Below are positions 8,452-64,000 of a stretch of DNA of 64,000 bases, piece by piece (the first letter of the stretch is position 1; each line of letters opens with the position of its first letter). Below the pieces are notes generated by a model, which worked only from the letters and a program-made list of their open reading frames with translations, was not told where the DNA came from and ran no database searches. The DNA comes from Candidatus Altimarinota bacterium (GTDB taxonomy: Bacteria; Patescibacteriota; Gracilibacteria; UBA4473): assembly GCA_020631075.1 (NCBI GenBank), contig JAHDHX010000007.1, positions 3,192 to 67,191 of the forward strand, in the 5' to 3' direction. Position numbers and translations under genes: made by a program.

Positions 8452-8646
8452 TAGGGAGTGTTCACAAAATGGTTTGAGAAGAAAAAAGAGAGATTTTTGA
8501 GCGAAAAATGAGCGCGTATTTGCAGCCTTGATGGATCAAGGCAAAAATGCGCAACCATTTTGCAGCCAAAAAGATTCTTTTTTCACTCAAATCACTCCTT
8601 ATATTTCAGGATCAACCTGTTTTTTCCAATTTGTGAACACTCCCTA
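8452..8646. mobile_element. MITE-like element, family A (TA-flanked, 15-17 bp perfect terminal inverted repeats)
   Basis: TA-GGGAGTGTTCACAAA at 8452-8468 pairs with TTTGTGAACACTCCC-TA at 8630-8646. The ~195-bp element is non-coding and contains an internal palindrome, CCTTGATGGATCAAGG. A second, internally deleted copy lies at 50298-50367. Confidence 0.65.
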
Positions 8647-25632: not shown

Positions 25633-26481
25633 TCACTCGACTATCTGCTCTATCGGCAACACAAGGATCCCCTCCGCCCCCGCCGCCTTCAGCGCCTTGA
25701 TCGTCTCCCAAAACTTCTCCGTCCGCACCACCGTGGCGAGGCTCACCCACCCGGGGTTGGCCAGCGCACTGATGGTCGGGTTTTTCAGCCCTGGCAACAG
25801 CTGCTTGATGTCCTCCACCGCGTCCTCGGGCGCATTCATGACGATGTACTTGTTTTGCTTCGCCGCCAGCGTCGACCGCACCCGCAGCAGCAGCTCCCCC
25901 AGCACGGGGCAGTCCCGCTCCGTCAGGCCGTTTTTGGCCACCAGCACCGCTTGGCTCTCCAGCACCGTTTCCAGTTCCACCAGCCCATTCTGCGTCAGGG
26001 TCGACCCCGTACTGACCAAGTCACAGATCGCGTCCGCCATCTGCAGGCTCGGGGCGATTTCTACACTCCCCGACAGCTCCACCACCGTGGCAGTTTTGCC
26101 CACTCGGTTCAGGTACCCCCGCAAGATGTTCGGGAAGCTCGTCGCGATCTTCTTGCCCTCTATTTCCAGTGGCCCAGGCGCCGCCAGACACAGCCGACAC
26201 CGCCCAAACCCTAGCCGCTCCAGCGTCGTCAGCTCGTCTGACGCTTGTTCCAGCAGCGCGTCTTCCCCGCATATCCCCAGGTCAGCCACCCCCTGCGCCA
26301 CCGCCCGCGGGATGTCCTTAGACCGTAAAAATATCAACTCCAACGGAAAGTTCCGACACGGCGCCTTCAGCGCGCGGTTGGCCGAAACAAACCGCAACCC
26401 CGCCCGCCGTAAAAATTCTAACCCCGCGTCCGCCAATCGCCCCGATTTCTGTACCGCCAGCGTCAGTGTCTTGTTGGTCAT
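25633..26481 (-). CDS. hisG: ATP phosphoribosyltransferase (long form)
   Basis: LTLAVQKSGRLADAGLEFL.., ..DLVSTGSTL.. and a C-terminal regulatory domain are present. Length 282 aa. Confidence 0.9.
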   Translation of the reverse strand: MTNKTLTLAVQKSGRLADAGLEFLRRAGLRFVSANRALKAPCRNFPLELIFLRSKDIPRAVAQGVADLGICGEDALLEQASDELTTLERLGFGRCRLCLAAPGPLEIEGKKIATSFPNILRGYLNRVGKTATVVELSGSVEIAPSLQMADAICDLVSTGSTLTQNGLVELETVLESQAVLVAKNGLTERDCPVLGELLLRVRSTLAAKQNKYIVMNAPEDAVEDIKQLLPGLKNPTISALANPGWVSLATVVRTEKFWETIKALKAAGAEGILVLPIEQIVE

Positions 26482-26559
26482 CTTGTCCTATTTTTTGAAG
26501 AGTTACCTATCCGCCCCCCTTCCTACCCCCTTGTCTTGTCCCCTCTATCCCCATTTTTT

Positions 26560-26874
26560 TCAGCCATTTTTCTGCGCTTCGTCACCCCCATAGCACCGCA
26601 TATGCAGCTTCGCATACCCCCCCGCCCCATGCTGCAGCCAGTGGGCCACGCGGGTCACCGTCGCGGTTGAAGCCCCCACCTCCATGGCTATCTGCCGATA
26701 CGCCAGCCCCGCTTTCAGCTTACGGACGATCTGCCAGCGTTCCGTCATGGCCCGCAGCTCGCTCAGCGTGCACAAGTCCCGAAAAAACTCCTCACACTCC
26801 GCCAGATCTTCCAGCTGGAGGATCACCCCAAACAGGTCGTCACTTGCAGTCCCAAAGGAAAAATCTTTTATCAT
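26560..26874 (-). CDS. TrpR/YerC/YecD-family DNA-binding protein heading the his operon
   Basis: ..LCTLSELRAMTERWQIVRKLKAGLAYRQIAMEVGASTATVTRVAHWLQHG.. is the TrpR-like HTH pattern. The gene is 78 nt upstream of hisG on the same strand. Confidence 0.7.
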   Translation of the reverse strand: MIKDFSFGTASDDLFGVILQLEDLAECEEFFRDLCTLSELRAMTERWQIVRKLKAGLAYRQIAMEVGASTATVTRVAHWLQHGAGGYAKLHMRCYGGDEAQKNG

Positions 26875-26878
26875 CCCA

Positions 26879-26894
26879 AGCGTTTTAACACGCT
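26879..26894. promoter_or_regulatory. 16-bp near-palindrome AGCGTTTTAACACGCT abutting the TrpR-like gene start
   Basis: The half-sites AGCGTTTT / AACACGCT are complementary at 7 of 8 positions. The site lies 5 nt upstream of the ATG at 26874. It could be an operator or a translation-masking hairpin. Confidence 0.3.
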
Positions 26895-27823
26895 AAAACA
26901 AAAAAGCCAAATTATTTCCCCCTTTTTTCAAAAACCTCCCGACATCCCACTCCCTTTTCCCCATTAATCAGCCACGAAAAAACACCAGCAAATGCGAAGC
27001 CAGCGAGCCTTCCGACTAGCAGGAGGACAAACCACTACGACAGCATTCAAGAGTGACTGTCTGTCTGCTGCAGGTCTCTGATTTCATCGAGGAGCAGGGT
27101 GGAAGTCATCAAATGAACCAAGAAGAGGAGCGGTGAGAGAGCCAGTCGGGAACGGTGATCGACCCACGAACAGCTTACCCAGAAACGAAAGAGCCCAAGC
27201 GAATGCGTAAGGTTGCGTAGATGGAGCGAAGCGGGATCAAGCCCACTGAAGCATTCAAGAGTGTCTGTCTACTGCAGACATCCGAGCGAGTCGCTCCGCC
27301 TGTGATAATGTAAGTCTTGCGAGGAAAGAGGAGCGGTGAGCGGAGCAGTAGTGAGCGACAGCGACCCACGCGCAGCTCACCCAGCGACGAGTGAGCCCCC
27401 AAAGTGTCCCAGCATGGTTCGCTGCGCGAGTCCACCAAAGATAACAGCGAATGCGTCGCCAGCGTGCCGTCCGACCAACGGGAGGACAAACCGCGGCGAT
27501 AGCATTCAAGATGCCTGTCTGTCTGCTGCAGCCCTCCGAGGTGATCGCGTCACATGGCTCATGGCATAGCGGTCGCGGAGGAAAGAGGAGCGATGAGCGA
27601 CCTACGGCGAAATCACCCAGCGACGAAGCATCAGGGAGTTATAATGATGATCTGCACACAAGTTGAGGAAGTATTGAAGCGAATGCGTCGCCAGCGTGCC
27701 GTCCGACCAACGGGAGGACAAACCGCGGCGATAGCATTCAAGATGCCTGTCTGTCTGCTGCAGCCCTCCGAGGTGATCGCGTCACATGGCTCACTCCCTA
27801 GCGATCGCCGAGGAAAGGTGAGT

Positions 27824-27883
27824 GATGAGGGAGTAGCGCGCATTTGGGGCGACTAAGCCCCAAAAAGCCGCAGCGGACTCATC
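27824..27883 (+). repeat. Z3-type nested hairpin, copy A
   Basis: The outer stem is GATGAG (27824-29) / CTCATC (27878-83). The inner stem is TTTGGGGC (27843-50) / GCCCCAAA (27857-64). Confidence 0.7.
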
Positions 27884-28253
27884 CAACGAACCACGGTTCG
27901 CTGAACCATAGATTTTTTGGTGGACTTTTTGGCCCCCTGCTTCAGGGCAATTTTCGAGTCAAATTATAACAAATTTGAAATAAAAAGCCCAAGCGAAAGC
28001 GAAAGGGCGCGCGCACTTCCCCCAGCGACGAAGCGACAATTGCCTGATTTATCAATCATAATAGCAAGAGAAGCGGGGGTCTGGGGGGGCCACCGATGTC
28101 TGAGCCAAGAGTGAGCAGTCGAAGCACCAGTGTGATATTGGCACCAGTTCATTATATCCAATCAATGATGATGGAGGTGTCTCTCTAGCGAACGGTCGGG
28201 TCATGCCCAGTGCCATCAACGTGTCGGCGAGTTTGGCCCCCCCAGCAGTTTTG

Positions 28254-28275
28254 GTACTTTTGCTGCCAAAAGTAC
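28254..28275 (+). repeat. H-module hairpin GTACTTTTG-CTGC-CAAAAGTAC
   Basis: It has a perfect 9-bp stem and a 4-nt loop. The same hairpin with a CTGT loop occurs at 52202-52223 and 63123-63144. Each copy is preceded by CCCAGCGACGACCCCCCAG and followed by AAACACTG..AATGAACCA. Confidence 0.8.
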
Positions 28276-28586
28276 AAACACTGTCTGAGAATGAACCAAC
28301 AAGGGTAACGAGCAAGAACAATAGCGAATGCGAAAGGACGCGCCGATGGAGCGCAGCGGAATCAAGTCCCCTGAAGCATTCAAGATGACAGGTTGTCAGT
28401 CTGCAGACATCCGAAGTGATCGCGTCACCTGGCTCAGAGCCTAGCGATCGCCGAGGAAGAGGAGCGGTGAGAGAGCCAGTCGGGAGCGGTAAGCGACCCA
28501 CGGCGAAATCACCCAGCGACGACCTGAAGCATTCAAGATGGTCGAGTGACTGTTGTCTGACATCCGAGGTGATCGCGCTGTGTGGC

Positions 28587-29414
28587 TCATGGTGTAGCGG
28601 TCGCCGAGGAAAGGCGAGCGATCACAGAGCCAGGTGCGCCGTTTGGGCGCTGCGCCCAAACCAGCTCCGGCGGAGTGATCCAGCGAGCCCTCCACCACGT
28701 CAGCTGCCGCTTCGCATACTTCCGCGTACGCTGCGCTAGCTTCCTGACGGCTTCGGCTTCGGTCAGCAGCCCACGGTCATATGCACGGGCCTCGGCCAGG
28801 CCCACGGTGGTCAGGGCGTTGTGCACGGCGGGGGGGGCGTGCTGGTGGGCGTGTCGGGCTTCCGCCAGCAGCCCTGGCCCCCACATCTGGGCCGCCCGCT
28901 GGTTTATCCGCTCATACAACACCTCCCGCGGCCAGTCTATGCCATACAGACAGCTGGGGTACCTCGGCACATTGGGCAAGCCGTCTTCCCAGCTCCACCC
29001 ACCACAGATCCCATCCACCCACAGCATGGTGCCCCCACACAGCAGCACCCGCTTGTCGGCGGCATGGGCCGCGTCTATCACCCCATACGCATACTCCGCA
29101 AACCGCTTCGCGTCCCACTTTTCGTGCAGGTCAGCAATGCTCAGGCCATAGTGGGGCACCCCCCGCATTTCCGCCGCTGATATTTGCGCCGTGGCGATGG
29201 GCATCCCGCGATATATCTGCCGACTATCGACCGACACCACCACTGCGTCACCCAGCGCCAGCGCTACTTCCACGGCCCAGTCGCTCTTGCCACTGGCCGT
29301 CGGCCCGACGATCGCGCACAGCCCCCGCGGGTGGTCAGCATACCACCGCACTATTTCGGCGGTGGCACGCGCCCGCGGGTCATTCACGTCATTCTTATTC
29401 GCCAGTGCAGTCAT
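28587..29414 (-). CDS. miaA: tRNA dimethylallyltransferase
   Basis: It has the P-loop IVGPTASGKSDWAVEVA and ..RQIYRGMPIATA.., ..TRKYAKRQLTWWR... The last ~33 codons (28587-28687) are read from repeat unit U6, so the native C-terminus is probably replaced. Confidence 0.85.
   Translation of the reverse strand: MTALANKNDVNDPRARATAEIVRWYADHPRGLCAIVGPTASGKSDWAVEVALALGDAVVVSVDSRQIYRGMPIATAQISAAEMRGVPHYGLSIADLHEKWDAKRFAEYAYGVIDAAHAADKRVLLCGGTMLWVDGICGGWSWEDGLPNVPRYPSCLYGIDWPREVLYERINQRAAQMWGPGLLAEARHAHQHAPPAVHNALTTVGLAEARAYDRGLLTEAEAVRKLAQRTRKYAKRQLTWWRARWITPPELVWAQRPNGAPGSVIARLSSATATP
28620..28680 (+). repeat. Z3-type nested hairpin, copy B
   Basis: The outer stem is GATCAC (28620-25) / GTGATC (28675-80). 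The inner stem is GTTTGGGCG (28641-49) / CGCCCAAAC (28653-61). Copy C lies at 58258-58316: outer GATCAC/GTGATC, inner CTTTGGGGG/CCCCCAAAG. Confidence 0.7.
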
Positions 29415-29437
29415 TCTGCCCTACAGTCTACAGCGTC

Positions 29438-30121
29438 ATGCTGTCTGTCAACGTCGTCGAACGCACCCTCCGCCTCCGGATCAACGATCGGGTCGGCACA
29501 GGGTTCGTCTACGACCACGACGGTCGGCAATACCTCCTGACGGCGCGGCACATCTGGGGTGAGTCACCGGGCCTGGGCTACATTGAGGTCTATCGCAACG
29601 CCCAGTGGGACCGCCTCGCAGCGGAGTCCCTCGGCCACTCGGGCGACATCCTCGTCTTGTCGGTCAATGACCGTCTCACCACCCGCGCGGCCGTGCCACC
29701 GGTGCACCGCGTGGGCATGGGGCAAGACGTCTACATTCTCGGCTTCCCCCTCAACCTCAAGTCCCAAGCCCACCACGCGGGCCACACCGTGCCCATCCCG
29801 TTCGTGAAGAAATCACTGCTCTCCGCCGCGCTCGAAACCCCCCCCAGCGGCCAGGTCCTCTACCTCGACGCTATCTTGGCGGGGGGTTTCAGCGGCGGGC
29901 CGGTGCTGGCCTACACACCGTCGGCGCCCGCCCCGCAGCGCTGGGCACTGCTGGGGCTGGTCTCGGGCTACATTTCCGAGCACCACCGCGGCACCGTCCG
30001 CACCCGCGACGGCGAATACTCCGTCCAGAGCCCCCGCAACACGGGCATCACCGTTGGGTGGTCACTGGCGCACGCCGTGCGGGTCATCCACCAGCGCCCT
30101 GAGGGGTTTGAGTTGGGGTGA
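29438..30121 (+). CDS. trypsin-like (S1/PA clan) serine peptidase
   Basis: From MLSVNVVERT.., the catalytic-triad candidates are LLTARHIW (His), DILVLSV (Asp) and GGFSGGPVL (Ser). The 219-codon N-terminal extension in the ORF track (antisense to miaA) was rejected. Confidence 0.7.
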   Translation: MLSVNVVERTLRLRINDRVGTGFVYDHDGRQYLLTARHIWGESPGLGYIEVYRNAQWDRLAAESLGHSGDILVLSVNDRLTTRAAVPPVHRVGMGQDVYILGFPLNLKSQAHHAGHTVPIPFVKKSLLSAALETPPSGQVLYLDAILAGGFSGGPVLAYTPSAPAPQRWALLGLVSGYISEHHRGTVRTRDGEYSVQSPRNTGITVGWSLAHAVRVIHQRPEGFELG

Positions 30122-30170: not shown

Positions 30171-32285
30171 ATGGAAAAAGAGAGTAATGAAACCGAGAGT
30201 GGGCTGTTTTATTGTGAAGTGGAACTCAAACCAATTCCACCAAACATTTTAAGTAGAATACAAAAGAAATTTTTGAAATACTCGATTATTGATGGAAATA
30301 ACTTGAGTTATTCAACGTCATTTGCAGACGAAGATTATTATGATTTGTATAAATATTTTAAATCTCACGGACTGAGCGCTGTATTAACAGAAGAGCAAAA
30401 AAGCAAAATTACTAAAATTGAAAAGATACCTTTGAAGCAAATTGAATGGAAGAAACAATTTTTATCAAAAAAAGGTGAATGGTGGATAGAAAAAAATGGC
30501 ACAATTTATTGGGGAATAGACTCAGGCCTAAATTCAGCTTTATACAGTGCCATAAGTAGAAAAAGCATTGAAGAAGTTTTGAATTTAAACTTGTTTGAAG
30601 GTCAGATTTTAGTTCAATCTACGGTTACAAAAATTAAGAAATTCACAGAAGATTTATTATCAATTGATGAGTTAAAAATAGAAAAAAAGAGGAGGAAAAA
30701 TAAAGAAGGAAGTTCGAATGATCTAATGACAAAAAAAGGTGATTACTGGATTGAATTTGGAGGGAAAGTAATTATTTCTATTCCTTCCTCGGATACAGCT
30801 TTGTATCTGTTTCAAAATAGAAATAAATTATCAAAGATTATCCCAAATATTTGGAGAAATAAGACTATTCTAGTAGTTAAGAGAAAAGTGTTTGAGAAAT
30901 TGAAGGAAAATGTAAATCGATCTGAAATATATTTTGTGGGAAAAGATCTTGATGGTAATTTAATTGAAAATGGAAATCCTAAATCTGGTGTAGGTTTAAT
31001 CAAAATTCAGGAAATAATTGAAAAGAGAGATATTAAATTGACTCCAAGTCAGATTGAAAAATTAATAGGTATCTCTAGCGAATTACAAGATCTTTTTGAG
31101 TTATCCGAATTTCAAGAAAATTGGAGTACTGGAAAAATTAAATCCCACAATCCAGCACTATATAAACAGTCAAAAACATGGGCAAAAAAGCTCAAAACAG
31201 ATTTCACCGATTTTCTTTCTATTTTTGCTGGAATCGAAGACAGCAATTCAAAGTATTTGACCAGTGAGATGAAAGCTGAAAAAGACAGTAAAGAAAAAAT
31301 GCAAAGGATTACATCTGACTTAATCGAATGGTTGAAAATAAAACAGGTAGGAGAATGGTATATAAATGACATTCCAAATACTTCAGTGCGTTCCAAAATT
31401 CAAATTTTATCTAAAAACATAGCTGACAAATCATTATTTCTAGAAAGATTTCTCATCAAATACGCAGAAGAGTTATCAGAGAATGAGAACAAAAAAAATC
31501 AATTAAAAAGTGAAATCAAAGCATTACTCTCTTTGAATCCTGTGAAAAGCCTAAGTAAGGAGATACCGAAGAATAAAGAGATGTTAAAAGAAAGAACGAT
31601 TAAAGAAATCATATCAGTTTCTGGGTCTTCTTGGTCAATAAATACACTTTCTAAAGCCTCACAAACAATTCTTAAAAGATACCTAAAAACGTCAAACCAA
31701 GAGTTTAAGAAAATAGCAGGAGCAAAAAATTCTATAAATGAAAAAATTCTTTTTGAGGATTGGCTTAATGATAGCTTTGAGATACTGAAAACTTATAAAC
31801 CATACGGATACTCAAATTACATGATTAAGAAAAAATTTAGTGAATATACAATGAATCTAAAAGTAAAAAAACCCTCGGATATCGAGAAAGTAGATAGATC
31901 ACTTTATAAAGCAATTTGCAGGAACATTAGTCGTAAAGGGAAATCATTGTGGCTCTATTTAATATTAAACTCTTTACCAGAAGTGTTTGTAAATAAAAAG
32001 CGCTACAAGTTTACTTTAGAAAATGAAATTATTTATAGAGGTGAGGGAAGTGCCAAAAAACAAGGCCATAACGATCCAGAGCTATTTATAAATAAATTTA
32101 AAAAAAGTAGTGCACAAACGCCCGAAGAAATAATGATTGCTAATGAAAGTTTGGATTTACTGCGAAATGGCCTTTCTGTAGTAAGAAATAACCCTCAATA
32201 CGCCGATTTTGTTGCTCGATACGAAGAAGAGGGAGAAATAACCCCAGAACTGGTTTCGATATTGAAGGAAGTGTTAAAGATTTGA
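30171..32285 (+). CDS. hypothetical 704-aa Lys/Glu/Asn/Ile-rich protein encoded on a strongly AT-rich island
   Basis: Uninterrupted 704-codon ORF in sequence whose composition differs sharply from both flanks. It contains internally repeated segments (KKGEWWIEKNGTIYWGIDSGLNSALYSAI / KKGDYWIEFGGKVIISIPSSDTALYLF / VGEWYINDIPNTSVRSKIQIL / SGSSWSINTLSKASQTIL). No known domain was recognised. Confidence 0.75.
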   Translation: MEKESNETESGLFYCEVELKPIPPNILSRIQKKFLKYSIIDGNNLSYSTSFADEDYYDLYKYFKSHGLSAVLTEEQKSKITKIEKIPLKQIEWKKQFLSKKGEWWIEKNGTIYWGIDSGLNSALYSAISRKSIEEVLNLNLFEGQILVQSTVTKIKKFTEDLLSIDELKIEKKRRKNKEGSSNDLMTKKGDYWIEFGGKVIISIPSSDTALYLFQNRNKLSKIIPNIWRNKTILVVKRKVFEKLKENVNRSEIYFVGKDLDGNLIENGNPKSGVGLIKIQEIIEKRDIKLTPSQIEKLIGISSELQDLFELSEFQENWSTGKIKSHNPALYKQSKTWAKKLKTDFTDFLSIFAGIEDSNSKYLTSEMKAEKDSKEKMQRITSDLIEWLKIKQVGEWYINDIPNTSVRSKIQILSKNIADKSLFLERFLIKYAEELSENENKKNQLKSEIKALLSLNPVKSLSKEIPKNKEMLKERTIKEIISVSGSSWSINTLSKASQTILKRYLKTSNQEFKKIAGAKNSINEKILFEDWLNDSFEILKTYKPYGYSNYMIKKKFSEYTMNLKVKKPSDIEKVDRSLYKAICRNISRKGKSLWLYLILNSLPEVFVNKKRYKFTLENEIIYRGEGSAKKQGHNDPELFINKFKKSSAQTPEEIMIANESLDLLRNGLSVVRNNPQYADFVARYEEEGEITPELVSILKEVLKI

Positions 32286-52039: not shown

Positions 52040-52483
52040 AATTCTTCAAGACGACAGGTTGTCTGGCTGCAGACATCCGAGCGAGTCGCTCTGTCTGTGA
52101 TAATTTTAGACTCGTGAGGAAGGAGGAGCGGTGAGCGAAGCAGCAGGGAGCGGCAGCGACCCGCGCGCAGCTTACCCAGCGACGACCCCCCAGTGGTTTT
52201 GGTACTTTTGCTGTCAAAAGTACAAACACTGTCTGAAAATGAACCAGTAAGGATAATGAGAAAGAACAATAGCGAATGCGACGCCAGCGAGCCGTCCGAC
52301 CAGCGGGAGGACAAACCGCGGCGACAGCATTCAAGATGCCTAAATGCAGATGCAGACATCCGAGCGAGTCGCTCTGCCTGTGAAAATTTCAGACTCGTGA
52401 GGAAAGAGCAGCGGTGAGAGAGCCAGTCGGGAGCGGTGAGCGACCCACGGCGAAATCACCCAGCTGCGACAGCGTAGTGATTT
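52040..52483 (+). repeat. array 2 of the X-Y-Z/H modular repeats
   Basis: Unit 2a spans 52040-52185 (X tail + Y1 + Z). The H module spans 52186-52270 (hairpin 52202-52223). Unit 2b spans 52271-52470, plus a Z3-tail fragment AGCGTAGTGATTT reaching the trmD stop. The array fills the whole trmD / fasciclin-gene gap. Confidence 0.85.
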
Positions 52484-53147
52484 AGCTGCGACACTGCCCC
52501 CTTCGCCACGCCTCTATCTTCGCATGGTGCCCACTCAGCAGCACGTCGGGCACGGCCATCCCCGCATACTCCGCAGGCCGTGTGTAGTGCGGGTACTCCC
52601 GCTTGCGGTCGAGTGCCACACTGAAGGACTCCTCGGCGACCGACTCCGCCGTGCCCACCACGCCGGGGCGCAGCCGCGCGACGGAGTCCATCAGCACCTG
52701 CGCGGGCAGCTCTCCTCCTGTCAGCACATAGTCCCCAATGCGGTATTCATGTTGCACCAGCGCTTCCCGCACGCGGTAGTCCACCCCCTCATAGTGCCCA
52801 CACAGGATGATCATCCGCTCCCCACGGTCACCCGCCGCCCAGGTTTCTGCCTCGGGCTGGGCCCACGGTTGGCCCTGCGGGGTGAGGTACACCACTGGCG
52901 CAGGCGCTTCCCCCATCGCCTGCACCGCCTCCACCGCCTTAAATATTGGCTCACACATCATCACCATCCCGGGCCCGCCGCCATAGGGCACGTCGTCCAC
53001 CTGACGGTGCCGCAGCGTTGAGTAGTCCCGAATATCATGACAATGCACCGAGATCAGCCCCCGCTCGACCGCCCGCCCGATGATCGAGTGCCCCGTGAAG
53101 GCCGCAAACGCTTCTGGAAACAGTGTCAAGACATCAAATCGCATCAA
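52482..53147 (-). CDS. trmD: tRNA (guanine37-N1)-methyltransferase
   Basis: MRFDVLTLFPEAF.., ..GGGPGMVM.. and ..LLSGHHAKIEAWRR.. are present. The C-terminus ends only 6 aa after WRR, directly at the repeat array. Confidence 0.9.
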   Translation of the reverse strand: MMRFDVLTLFPEAFAAFTGHSIIGRAVERGLISVHCHDIRDYSTLRHRQVDDVPYGGGPGMVMMCEPIFKAVEAVQAMGEAPAPVVYLTPQGQPWAQPEAETWAAGDRGERMIILCGHYEGVDYRVREALVQHEYRIGDYVLTGGELPAQVLMDSVARLRPGVVGTAESVAEESFSVALDRKREYPHYTRPAEYAGMAVPDVLLSGHHAKIEAWRRGQCRS

Positions 53148-57902: not shown

Positions 57903-57961
57903 GACAGTACTCCCCTCCACACGTCCCCCCCAGCGCAACAATCTCATTGCAAAAGACTCAT

Positions 57962-58323
57962 AGCGAGCGTATTCAAGATGACTCACTGTCAGTTGCAGGC
58001 ATCCGAGCGAGTCGCTCTGACTGTGAAAATTTCAGACTCGTGAGGAGAGAGGAGCGGTGATTGAGCCAGTCGGGAGCGAGAGCGACCCACGCGAAGTTAC
58101 CCCAGCCACGAAAGAATATGAGCGAATGCGAAAGGTTGCGTAGATGCAGCGCAGCGGAATCAAGCCCTCCTGCAGCATTCAAGATGACAGGTGACTGACA
58201 TCCGAGGTGATCGCGCCACCTGACTCACTGCCCAGCGATCGCCGAGGAAAGAGGAGCGATCACGAAGCAGCGCGCACTTTGGGGGCCGCCCCCAAAGCAG
58301 CCACAGCGTAGTGATCCAGCGAC
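57962..58323 (+). repeat. array 3 of the X-Y-Z modular repeats
   Basis: Unit 3a spans 57962-58111 (collapsed X + Y1 + Z). Unit 3b spans 58121-58323 (X2 + Y2 + Z3 nested hairpin). The array ends exactly one nt before the greA stop codon (58324-26). Confidence 0.85.
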
Positions 58324-58827
58324 TCAGCCCACCTTTACTATCTCATATTCATACTCCCCCCCGGGAGCCTTCACTTTCACTTGTTTTTTGGCCTTCATCC
58401 CCACGATGGCCTCCCCCACAGGCGACTCGTTCGAGATTTTATTATTCAACGGATCAGCCTCCGTCGACCCCACAATGTAATACTCCGCCACGTCCCCCGT
58501 GTCGAGCGCCTTGAGCGTCACCGTTGACCCCACTTGGATCGTCCCGTCATTTTTGTCAGCTTCCACGATGTCCGCATACTTGATCTGATCCTCCAACTCG
58601 ATGATCCGCGCCTCAATGAACGCCTGCTGGTTCTTCGCCTCATCATACTCCGAGTTCTCTGACAAGTCACCATAGCTGATCGCCTCCGCCAAACGGTCCG
58701 ACACCTTTTTCCGTTCGGTGGTTTTCAGCTGTTCCAGCTCCGTCACGAGGTTGTCATACCCTTCCTGCGTCAGCAGGAATCGCTTCTCGTCGGTCGCTTT
58801 GGCGGCTTTTTTCTTGGCTGGGGCCAT
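58324..58827 (-). CDS. greA: transcription elongation factor GreA
   Basis: It has an N-terminal coiled-coil (..LTQEGYDNLVTELEQLK..ISYGDLSENSEYDEAKNQQ..) and a C-terminal FKBP-like domain. Length 167 aa. Confidence 0.9.
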   Translation of the reverse strand: MAPAKKKAAKATDEKRFLLTQEGYDNLVTELEQLKTTERKKVSDRLAEAISYGDLSENSEYDEAKNQQAFIEARIIELEDQIKYADIVEADKNDGTIQVGSTVTLKALDTGDVAEYYIVGSTEADPLNNKISNESPVGEAIVGMKAKKQVKVKAPGGEYEYEIVKVG

Positions 58828-62867: not shown

Positions 62868-63481
62868 AATCACTTCCGAGCTATTGCATTTCCCCCAGCG
62901 ACAAAAGACCCCCAGCGAATGCGGAAGGATGCGCCGATGGAGCCTGAGCGGAATCAAGCCCCCTGAAGCATTCAAGATGTCTGTATGTCTGAACATCAGA
63001 ACGAGTCGCTCTGTTTGTGATAATTACAGACTCGTGAGGAAAGAGCAGCGGTGATTGAGCCAGTCGGGAGCGATGAGCGACCCACGGCGAAATGACCCAG
63101 CGACGACCCCCCAGCAGTTTTGGTACTTTTGCTGTCAAAAGTACAAACACTGCCAGGGAATGAACCAAAGGTTGCCTCTTGCAGACATCCGAGGTGATCG
63201 CGTCACCTGGCTCATGGCATAGCGGTCGCGGAGGAAAGAGCAGCGGTAATTGAGCCAGTCAGGAGCGATGAGCGACCCACGGCGAAATGACCCAGCGACG
63301 ACCTGAAGCATTCAAGATGTCTGTATGTCTGAACATCCGAACGAGTCGCTCTGTCTGTGATAATTACAGACTCGTGAGGAAAGAGCAGCGGTGAGCGAAG
63401 CAGCAGGGAGCGACAGCGACCCGCGCGCAGCTCACCCAGCTGCGAGCGCTAGCGACCCGCGCGCAGCTCACCCAGCGACGA
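62868..63481 (+). repeat. array 4 of the X-Y-Z/H modular repeats
   Basis: A Z-tail fragment spans 62868-62913. Unit 4a spans 62914-63106 and the H module spans 63107-63183 (hairpin 63123-63144). Unit 4b spans 63184-63301 (Y2 + Z, no X). Unit 4c spans 63302-63481 and contains an internal tandem duplication of AGCGACCCGCGCGCAGCTCACCCAGC. Confidence 0.85.
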
Positions 63482-64000
63482 AGCTGCTCTCATCGCCCCC
63501 ACAAACACCCCCATCATTTCCGCCACCCGCGCCTCGGTGCGGCCCTGCACCCGCAGCGATATTTTCGGCGTCGTGTTCGAGCACCGAATGATCCCCCACT
63601 CACCGTCAGCCCAGTCTATGCGCACCCCATCGGTCAGGTTCGCCTGGGGGTACTGCGCGCCCAGGTCCGCCTGCACACGCTCCATCACGGCAAATTTCTC
63701 ATCGTCAGGCACAGGGAATTTCTCACTCCGCTGGACCATCTGCGGCCACTGAGTGGTCAGGCTGGGCAGCAGGTCAGGGTCCGCCTGGACCGCCGACACC
63801 CAGCGGATCACCGCCAGCATGGCGTCATCATACCCATAATACTCCTCCCCAAACATAAAGTGCCCCGACTGCTCCCCCCCGAGGCGTATCCCATGCTGGT
63901 GCATCGCTTGCTCTATGTGCGAATGCCCCGTTTTCGACAGCAGCACCTCCGCCCCACGCGCCTCCGCATACGCCACATACGCCGCCGACATCATCAGGTC
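63449..64000 (-). CDS. phosphoglucomutase/phosphomannomutase family protein, C-terminal part (gene continues beyond the window)
   Basis: ..SKTGHSHIEQAM..RLGGEQSGHFMFGEEYYGYDDAMLA.. are the domain III/IV blocks. The frame stays open to position 64000. The last ~10 codons and the stop lie inside repeat array 4. Confidence 0.75.
   Translation of the reverse strand, partial: DLMMSAAYVAYAEARGAEVLLSKTGHSHIEQAMHQHGIRLGGEQSGHFMFGEEYYGYDDAMLAVIRWVSAVQADPDLLPSLTTQWPQMVQRSEKFPVPDDEKFAVMERVQADLGAQYPQANLTDGVRIDWADGEWGIIRCSNTTPKISLRVQGRTEARVAEMMGVFVGAMRAASSLGELRAGR

Follow-up and report, generated by a model that had tools for sequence, protein, structure and literature searches.

A hairpin-forming repeat encodes the C-terminus and stop codon of MiaA in a Candidatus Altimarinota bacterium

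Hairpin-forming repeats of several kinds are known from bacterial genomes. The BOX elements of Streptococcus pneumoniae are intergenic and consist of interchangeable hairpin modules; to our knowledge they are neither derived from tRNA leaders nor locked to one strand. [quoted passage not shown] IS200/IS605 single-strand transposons and the attC sites of integrons have an orientation linked to replication (PMC5027513, PMC5371416). Here, we describe a modular hairpin repeat in a 64,000-nt stretch of DNA (the window) from a Candidatus Altimarinota bacterium, where it forms four arrays, one of which supplies the end of miaA, the gene for tRNA dimethylallyltransferase. The window is C49:3192-67191 of a 1.46-Mb assembly of 50 contigs (genome G000, 95.9% complete); contigs are denoted below by C and related genomes by G, each with a number.

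The likeness to BOX elements is one of modular architecture, and there is no sequence relation between them and the arrays. As with RPEs, a hairpin repeat of ~100–150 nt is read as protein in housekeeping genes, and the host enzyme is apparently still functional. Unlike RPEs, which lie in frame within an open reading frame (ORF) so that native reading resumes beyond them, the repeat here replaces the C-terminus and supplies the stop, and its units form arrays and are homologous, by covariance-model comparison, to a tRNA-leader RNA. The arrays resemble REP and BIME elements in being intergenic, hairpin-forming, clustered and commoner downstream of genes. However, their units, two-hairpin modules of 115–130 nt, are four to five times longer and are modular (X, Y, Z, L, R), their fold lies antisense to the abutted genes, and their orientation is locked to GC skew. 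Nor do they form a REPtron, since neither a REP-associated tyrosine transposase (RAYT) nor any other Y1 transposase (PF01797) was found in the 95.9%-complete genome. One-strand-specific hairpins in uniform orientation (27 of 27 arrays) relative to a replication-linked strand asymmetry recall IS200/IS605 and attC; unlike in those systems, no link to an HUH transposase or an integrase was found here. No TnpA or TnpB partner was found in this genome, in which TnpB (PF07282) has no match, and no conserved target tetra- or pentanucleotide was found at the junctions. Moreover, an unrelated MITE of the terminal-inverted-repeat type is equally biased here, which may point to a cause in the genome rather than in the element.

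The miaA gene lies on the minus strand at 28587..29414 and encodes 275 amino acids with a clear match to the Pfam IPPT domain (PF01715, E=6.8e-44), the last matched residue being 243. The P-loop and the DSRQ.Y, GGT.LW and RQ.TW motifs that identify the family are all in place, with the invariant residues G37, T39, G42, K43, D63, S64, Q66, G127, G128, R231 to W240 and R242. What follows the domain, codons R244 to P275 (RWITPPELVWAQRPNGAPGSVIARLSSATATP) and the TGA stop at 28587-28589, falls within 28587..28686, a segment that doubles as the miaA 3′ end on the minus strand and as the right half of a Y2–Z3 repeat unit on the plus strand. This unit, U6 (28560..28686, plus strand), comprises the Y2 hairpin (28560-28612) and the long Z3 hairpin (28613-28686); from 28560 the plus strand reads ACATCCGAG, hairpin, CGAGGAAAG, long hairpin and GTGATCCAGCGA, the same Y–Z layout as in the other arrays. 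When 28587-28720 was compared with the genome by blastn, its positions 1-100 matched other arrays over 90-105 nt at 72-80% identity (E from 7e-18 to 1e-9). The similarity ends at ..GTGATCCAGCGA (28686), right after the miaA TWWR codons, and the codon for A243 spans the junction. The 32 codons R244 to P275 and the stop are therefore repeat-derived. The preliminary description, made from the letters of the window, had assigned the last ~33 codons and the stop to the repeat, and the blastn result bears this out for 32–33 codons.

The genetic code was checked because some relatives belong to TGA-recoding groups (Gracilibacteria-type names), and one relative has in-frame TGAs. In this genome TGA terminates 181 of 707 confident ORFs (26%), and long ORFs are intact under table 11, which rules out TGA as a sense codon.

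In relatives, MiaA ends differently. At 19 genomic loci from the same family or class, the protein finishes 9-20 residues past RQLTWW, typically as RGR-[ED]D-[VI]xW-[VIL]-[DE], and homologues from the protein search finish likewise. Here, the end reads TWWR-AR-WITP-PELVWAQ-RPNGAPGSVIARLSSATATP, with the C-terminal peptide ..VIARLSSATATP; thus the repeat-coded RWITPPELVWAQ... and the tail behind it stand where relatives have RGR-[ED]D-[VI]xW. The comparison with relatives that lack the repeat, proposed earlier as a check, therefore comes out as expected of a repeat-derived tail: neither the 19 loci nor the protein-search homologues carry it. Its distal 20 residues occur in no homologue from that search, which covered 5.8 billion proteins and returned no MiaA more than 48% identical (the best of 5004 homologues). 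A displaced native C-terminus was considered and rejected: the native-end motif [RK]x[ED..][ED][IVL]xW is absent from all three minus-strand frames of 26481-28690. Since no remnant is left in these 2.2 kb downstream, the native end was lost, not displaced.

The proximal part of the tail bears a likeness to what it replaced. MAFFT sets W253 under the near-invariant tryptophan of the family, and the repeat-coded PELVWA aligns with [ED]D[VI]xW[VIL] after a 4-residue insertion, the native segment itself being absent. Other Z3 copies encode WITTLRLLWAQ.. in the same frame, so the hydrophobic-x-Trp pattern is intrinsic to the repeat; the miaA copy departs from them by TL>PP, R>E and L>V. AlphaFold2 (AF2), run on 48 sequences, gives MiaA a mean predicted local distance difference test score (pLDDT) of 85.6, a strand at 251-255 with pLDDT ~58 and values below 50 at 259-275. 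The proximal tail may, on this model, substitute for the lost terminal strand, with the distal 20 residues as a passenger that is probably disordered. As to the substitutions of the miaA copy, the middle helix of the long hairpin in the top-strand fold of U6 has ~7 pairs, more than in the greA-side unit, and by eye the substituted stretch falls in the 3′ arm of that helix, so that either protein adaptation or fold maintenance may be their cause.

The fold itself belongs to the strand opposite to miaA. Over 28560-28690, the plus strand of U6 reaches -66.9 kcal/mol (z=-3.74), a value that 0 of 200 shuffles attained, and the minus strand -53.5 kcal/mol (z=-1.29); for the greA-side unit, the last of array 3, z is -4.57 on the top strand and -1.50 on the bottom. 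The Y modules fold better on the top strand in 33 of 35 cases and contain 45 G.U pairs, which would turn into C.A mismatches if the bottom strand were folded. The Z module forms a covarying hairpin, GAGCG-GUGAU..AUCAC-CCAGCGACGA. The covariance model built for it from 24 sequences (model R1) has 92.9% of its cells paired, with compensatory changes at 9 of 14 pairs, a result that 0 of 500 shuffles equalled; the values for slid controls are 23-47%.

This model has 43 matches in the present genome, with E down to 5e-19. Over the family it matches 13 of 43 genomes, in 8 of 25 genera; a sample of 110 genomes from the other families of the class gave no match (E<=1e-4, strict filters). The first clue to these relations was a set of weak Z-module matches in genus g5, obtained in a DNA search of the family. 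The g5 loci consist of tandem units with conserved flanks, CCGAG..GAGGAAAG and GGAGCGGTGAT..ATCACCCAGCGACG, and covarying stems; several have a TTGACA-17-TAnAAT promoter upstream, and the majority of units run up to the first base of a tRNA on the same strand. Of the 26 matches inspected in other genomes, 22, from seven other genera, end 0-2 nt before a same-strand tRNA. For two more, the same-strand tRNA follows at a distance of 14 and 303 nt, and the last two (in G004 and G043), with the geometry of the present genome, abut the 3′ end of an opposite-strand tRNA-Arg; in G043, the unit end also abuts the stop codon of an intact guaA (..PPGTIEWE*). The Z hairpin is shown, at the level of sequence and covariation, to be homologous to a predicted structured tRNA-leader RNA of seven other genera of the same family. 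In this genome the leader position is vacant: none of the 37 tRNAs has a unit ending 0-2 nt before it on the same strand.

The leader of the relatives is an uncatalogued structured RNA of ~120-200 nt that precedes many different tRNA genes in seven other genera (loci L022, L031, L034, L042 and L061-L087, from G004, G043, G048, G018, G046, G034, G013, G001 and others). In five further genera (g2, g14, g19, g37 and that of G048, G018 and G046), the leader carries an upstream ..GGGGUAGCUGAGnnCGAAUAGG.. domain at the loci inspected. In two other genera, a leader unit or array and a tRNA-Arg adjoin the 5′ side of miaA (G004 C23:17191-18446 and G001 C7:13141-14061); in the window, a tRNA-Arg(CCT) lies ~3 kb from miaA, past an AT-rich island (30171-32285). 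The 4227 covariance models of Rfam 15 have no match at E<=1 over array 1. Across the leader loci of the relatives Rfam finds only tRNA genes, besides a sub-threshold Plastid-ycf2 match (33 bits, gathering score 66) that sits on a tRNA. RNase P RNA was recovered in 5 of 5 genomes tested, here at 94.6 bits, below the Rfam gathering score of 100. An exact-pattern scan of 185,579 species genomes for the unit gave 0 matches, and literature searches returned no description of this leader or repeat.

All four arrays of the window lie on the plus strand and meet a minus-strand gene at their right ends. Array 1 (26987..28686), which ends in miaA, is composite: it holds X–Y–Z units, an internal L module (27401-27437), an internal R palindrome (27887-27902) and a ~400-nt non-unit segment that recurs at C8:170302-170559. 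Array 2 (52040..52491) has a degenerate right end in which the TAA stop of trmD is embedded (52482-52484), reading GTGATTTAGCTGCGA for the consensus GTGATCCAGCTGCGA; because the stop sits within this degenerate unit end, the repeat extends to 52491. The trmD gene (52482..53147, minus strand; Pfam tRNA_m1G_MT, E=7.4e-55) encodes a protein ending ..WRRGQCRS*. Relatives end WR-x3-C-x2-4, that is, 5-10 residues past the conserved WR and with a conserved cysteine, so TrmD is of full length for its family and a clipped protein is ruled out. Array 3 (57960..58323) stops one base before greA (58324..58827, minus strand), whose TGA at 58324 comes immediately past ..CCAGCGAC; GreA is apparently full length, its Pfam matches (GreA_GreB_N and GreA_GreB) running to residue 166 of 167. 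Array 4 (62892..63481) covers the last 10 codons and the stop of a gene of the phosphoglucomutase (PGM)/phosphomannomutase (PMM) family that runs off the window (63449..64000, minus strand; Pfam PGM_PMM_III and PGM_PMM_IV). Its TAG at 63449 is ~33 nt inside the array, its 10-residue tail ..SSLGELRAGR* is repeat-coded, and the homology of relatives stops at residue 158-174 of 182. The stop positions given in the preliminary description, 52482, 58324 and 63449, with that of miaA inside its array, are thus correct. The BLAST E-values and the 43 covariance-model matches exclude a chance match.

Blastn with these four arrays located 27 arrays in the genome, ~12 kb in total, and their gene context was read from a home-made codon-model ORF caller combined with ARAGORN and Pfam checks. 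In 21 of the 27, the right end looks onto a gene or tRNA of the opposite strand from its 3′ side, against 50.6% expected (p=0.0036); the remaining 6 face gene 5′ ends. Left ends also face 3′ ends in 17 of 27 cases (p=0.12). Convergent gaps hold 12 arrays against 19% expected (p=0.0025), divergent gaps a single one (p=0.025, depleted) and tandem gaps 9 and 5 in their two orientations (p=0.42). The main context effect is avoidance of promoter-side DNA. A survey of this kind had been suggested in the preliminary description; the association of right ends with 3′ ends stands, and left ends tend the same way. What is confined to the right ends is overlap with ORFs.

Many arrays begin with an L module, GTGGTTCGCTGCGCGAGTCCACCA, and 14 end in an R module, which consists of a perfect palindrome, CGAACCACGGTTCGCT, followed by a 7-bp hairpin, GGACTTT..AAAGTCC, and then ACCA. 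R-less arrays lie at a 3′ end in 12 of 13 cases (p=0.002); for R-bearing arrays the figure is 9 of 14, which is not significant. The R module (27887-27935 in the window, and ~14 other arrays) resembles the acceptor minihelix of a tRNA, CCA end included. The L module (27401-27437) carries GGTTCG..GAGTCCACCA, and the pair look like a tRNA 3′ end present in direct and inverted copy on either side of the array. At ~9 arrays, a conserved C-rich segment of ~200-230 nt lies upstream of the L module (as at C22:41850-42095 and C35:108640-108838), and its complement contains runs of at least four G, for example GGGGGAATGTGGGGTGGGGAGTGGGG.

Counted relative to the stop codon or tRNA end, the junctions are scattered. 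The offset is -101 nt at miaA, -77 nt at trpS, -33 nt at the PGM-family gene, -14 nt at the ORF C8:168215-169720, -10 nt at trmD, -8 nt at the ORF C8:199464-200651, 0 nt at greA, 0 to 5 nt at tRNA-Leu and tRNA-Lys, +3 nt at the ORF C10:37837-38238 and about +9 nt at dnaA; the three ORFs have no Pfam match. No shared target motif was found at the right junctions. GTCCACC, a sequence that the L and R ends have in common and that is similar to TCCACCA in the miaA TWW codons, is not significantly associated with them (p about 0.1). The tryptophanyl-tRNA synthetase (TrpRS; trpS, C5:81528-82571) ends ..MRELVGL and then SSLGELRAGRSSLPAASLTAPLPR*, 24 repeat-coded residues, and it shares its terminal repeat-coded peptide with the PGM-family protein, the same Z module being read in the same frame. 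TrmD and the product of C8:199464-200651 both end ..RS*, where the TGG of the repeat has become TAA or TAG; a stop has thus arisen twice at one repeat position in unrelated ORFs (window 52482-52491 and C8:200643-200651). Four arrays lie near tRNAs, in each case facing the 3′ end of a tRNA encoded on the opposite strand, and array C35:108820-109429 ends ~9 nt from the stop of dnaA (C35:109428-110903).

The orientation of the arrays follows a rule that is independent of this family of repeats. In 27 of 27 arrays the G/A-rich, structure-forming strand lies on the locally C-rich strand (p=1.5e-8), and 43 of 43 covariance-model matches in the genome are co-oriented with GC skew. So are 24 of 25 copies of the unrelated MITE family A (window 8452-8646), and 609 of 682 high-scoring segment pairs of dispersed repeats are concordant with skew. 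The skew is extreme (0.2-0.35 per 10 kb) and does not change sign within any contig, the large contigs used being C3, C5, C7, C8, C10, C22, C35, C40, C45 and C49. The G-rich strand carries the L16 gene, dnaA and 23 of 37 tRNAs, the C-rich strand 16S, 23S and rpoC. As these leading-strand markers conflict, orientation is stated relative to GC skew only; since the skew keeps its sign near dnaA, the replication origin is probably not beside that gene. Genes show no strand bias, the G-rich strand holding 44% of called coding bases. The identical polarity of the four window arrays reflects their shared position on one skew domain and is not evidence of a gene-directed mechanism. The preliminary description had read that polarity as a sign of gene 3′-end targeting or function, a reading to which a rule obeyed by all 27 arrays and by nearly all copies of an unrelated MITE gives no support. 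The co-orientation implies a genome-level cause, which may be the way repeats spread or selection acting at replication forks.

How, then, did repeat and genes come to share their ends? That the MiaA tail is native, with a coincidental or secondary resemblance to the repeat, might be argued from the alignment of PELVW with the family motif [ED]D[VI]xW. It is scarcely credible beside ~100 nt of homology to at least nine other copies, spanning the Y2 3′ arm and the whole Z3 hairpin, non-genic copies that also encode LLWAQ, and a distal tail that no homologue has; the blastn comparison of 28587-28720 effectively refutes it. A diversity-generating retroelement is ruled out, as the reverse transcriptase domain RVT_1 has no match in the genome and the copies differ at all bases and by insertions and deletions, not specifically at A. 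Polar, targeted insertion is a more serious proposal, in which a mobile element with a single-stranded or fork-coupled intermediate would direct its right end to the 3′ ends of genes and tRNAs and the tails would be insertion products. It would account for the single orientation, relative to GC skew, of 27 arrays and 43 units, for right ends placed 0-5 nt from the 3′ ends of tRNA-Leu and tRNA-Lys here and abutting tRNA-Arg in G004 and G043, and for the 12 of 13 R-less arrays that abut 3′ ends. Full arrays have an L and an R module as their boundaries, and the GGTTCGCTG and AGTCCACCA common to both, which look like a tRNA-like 3′ end in direct and inverted copy, also fit it; strand-locked insertion is documented for IS200/IS605 (PMC5027513). 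However, searches of the 96%-complete genome for a Y1 transposase, a reverse transcriptase and TnpB found none, gene 5′ ends lie opposite 6 of the 27 right ends, the strand lock is common to unrelated repeat families, and no target-site duplication is evident at R-less ends. With junctions from -101 to about +9 nt, no target motif (p about 0.1 for the candidate) and no partner enzyme, site-specific targeting to gene 3′ ends, one of the two explanations first offered for these arrays, is disfavored, and we consider targeted insertion as a whole unlikely; the strand lock is what keeps a fork-coupled mechanism in consideration.

The arrays might instead act through RNA. Top-strand transcripts, antisense to or convergent with miaA, trmD, greA and the PGM-family gene, could regulate or terminate these genes at their 3′ ends. 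In favor of this, the fold is specific to the top strand, the homologous module is promoter-driven on that strand in relatives, and the U6 fold is intact, even strengthened, within the miaA ORF. Yet in this genome there are no promoter-like sites left of the arrays, the terminator scan was negative, the genes that the arrays abut have unrelated functions, and the 6 arrays that face gene 5′ ends count against it. An antisense RNA function therefore seems to us quite doubtful. Weaker still is the other explanation first offered, a 3′-UTR element, by which arrays co-transcribed with the upstream minus-strand gene would stabilize or terminate its mRNA, as REP and BIME elements do (PMC3333891). Although 21 of 27 arrays immediately follow a gene whose transcript would carry them as its 3′ untranslated region, folding of the mRNA-sense strand does not surpass that of shuffled sequence (z=-1.3 and -1.5), the conserved G.U pairs become C.A mismatches on it, and no hairpin with a U-tract was found: intrinsic terminators are absent at the miaA end, and matches in 26400-29500 do not exceed the shuffled number. 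Since the structured strand is antisense to miaA and is the strand from which the homologous leader module is read in relatives, we regard a 3′-UTR role as improbable.

We propose a different history, in which the repeat-coded tail came about by erosion and joining at gene 3′ ends that tolerate it, and not by targeting or as a 3′-UTR device; we hold this to be somewhat probable. The arrays would represent a lineage-specific proliferation of the tRNA-leader module and would persist where they are least harmful, downstream of genes and away from promoters. Where the R module is missing, deletion or recombination would have joined an array to the 3′ end of a convergent gene, and joins that spare function would be the ones to survive. 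Such selection would leave tRNAs abutted exactly, greA and trmD joined at the stop, and miaA, trpS and the PGM-family gene joined within dispensable C-terminal codons. The ORF would then translate the antisense strand of the array until the first in-frame stop and, because that strand is C-rich and poor in stop codons, long repeat-coded tails would result. In miaA, the native RGR-[ED]D-[VI]xW-h would have been lost, and the repeat-coded PELVWAQ would happen to supply a hydrophobic-x-Trp strand, the remaining ~20 residues being probably a disordered passenger. A folded RNA, should one be transcribed from the unit, would be antisense to the miaA 3′ end.

Several points weigh against this history. 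There is no empty site or intermediate for the deletion step, as the collections searched contain no close relative (best MiaA, 48%). Erosion and joining do not explain the strict co-orientation with GC skew, for which polar spreading may be needed. Sigma-70-like promoters were not found left of the arrays, weak matches occurring at 6 of 27 for the top strand against 3 of 27 for the bottom, and the flanking genes come from the home-made ORF caller, four flanking ORFs having no Pfam match. Finally, AF2 confidence is low (~58) for the LVWAQ strand, and the alignment may drive that prediction. A bolder version is tempting, though we think it unlikely: the leader RNA would have escaped its tRNA genes to become a proliferating element locked to one replication strand, spreading through single-stranded fork intermediates with its L and R ends, among them a minihelix-plus-ACCA mimic of a tRNA 3′ end, as handles, and actively remodeling the 3′ ends of essential genes, the miaA tail being exapted to restore the lost C-terminal Trp strand.

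Repeat-coded protein ends are already known from the Rickettsia RPEs, and taken alone the MiaA tail is a modest curiosity. What is new here is the terminal replacement, the tRNA-leader origin, the arrays of modular units and the strand rule across repeat families. Tracing the repeat to a conserved structured tRNA-leader RNA affords a rare view of a functional RNA turning into a dispersed repeat. In a 1.46-Mb genome the repeat has rewritten the ends of no fewer than three core genes, namely miaA, trpS and the PGM-family gene, with a recurrent reading frame, and trmD and one ORF without annotation seem to owe it their stop codons, a Trp codon of the repeat having changed to a stop. The MiaA tail, which partly reproduces a conserved C-terminal motif, is a testable case of tolerated or exapted selfish DNA, and the strand rule, seen in all repeat families examined, is relevant to the spread or survival of repeats at replication forks.

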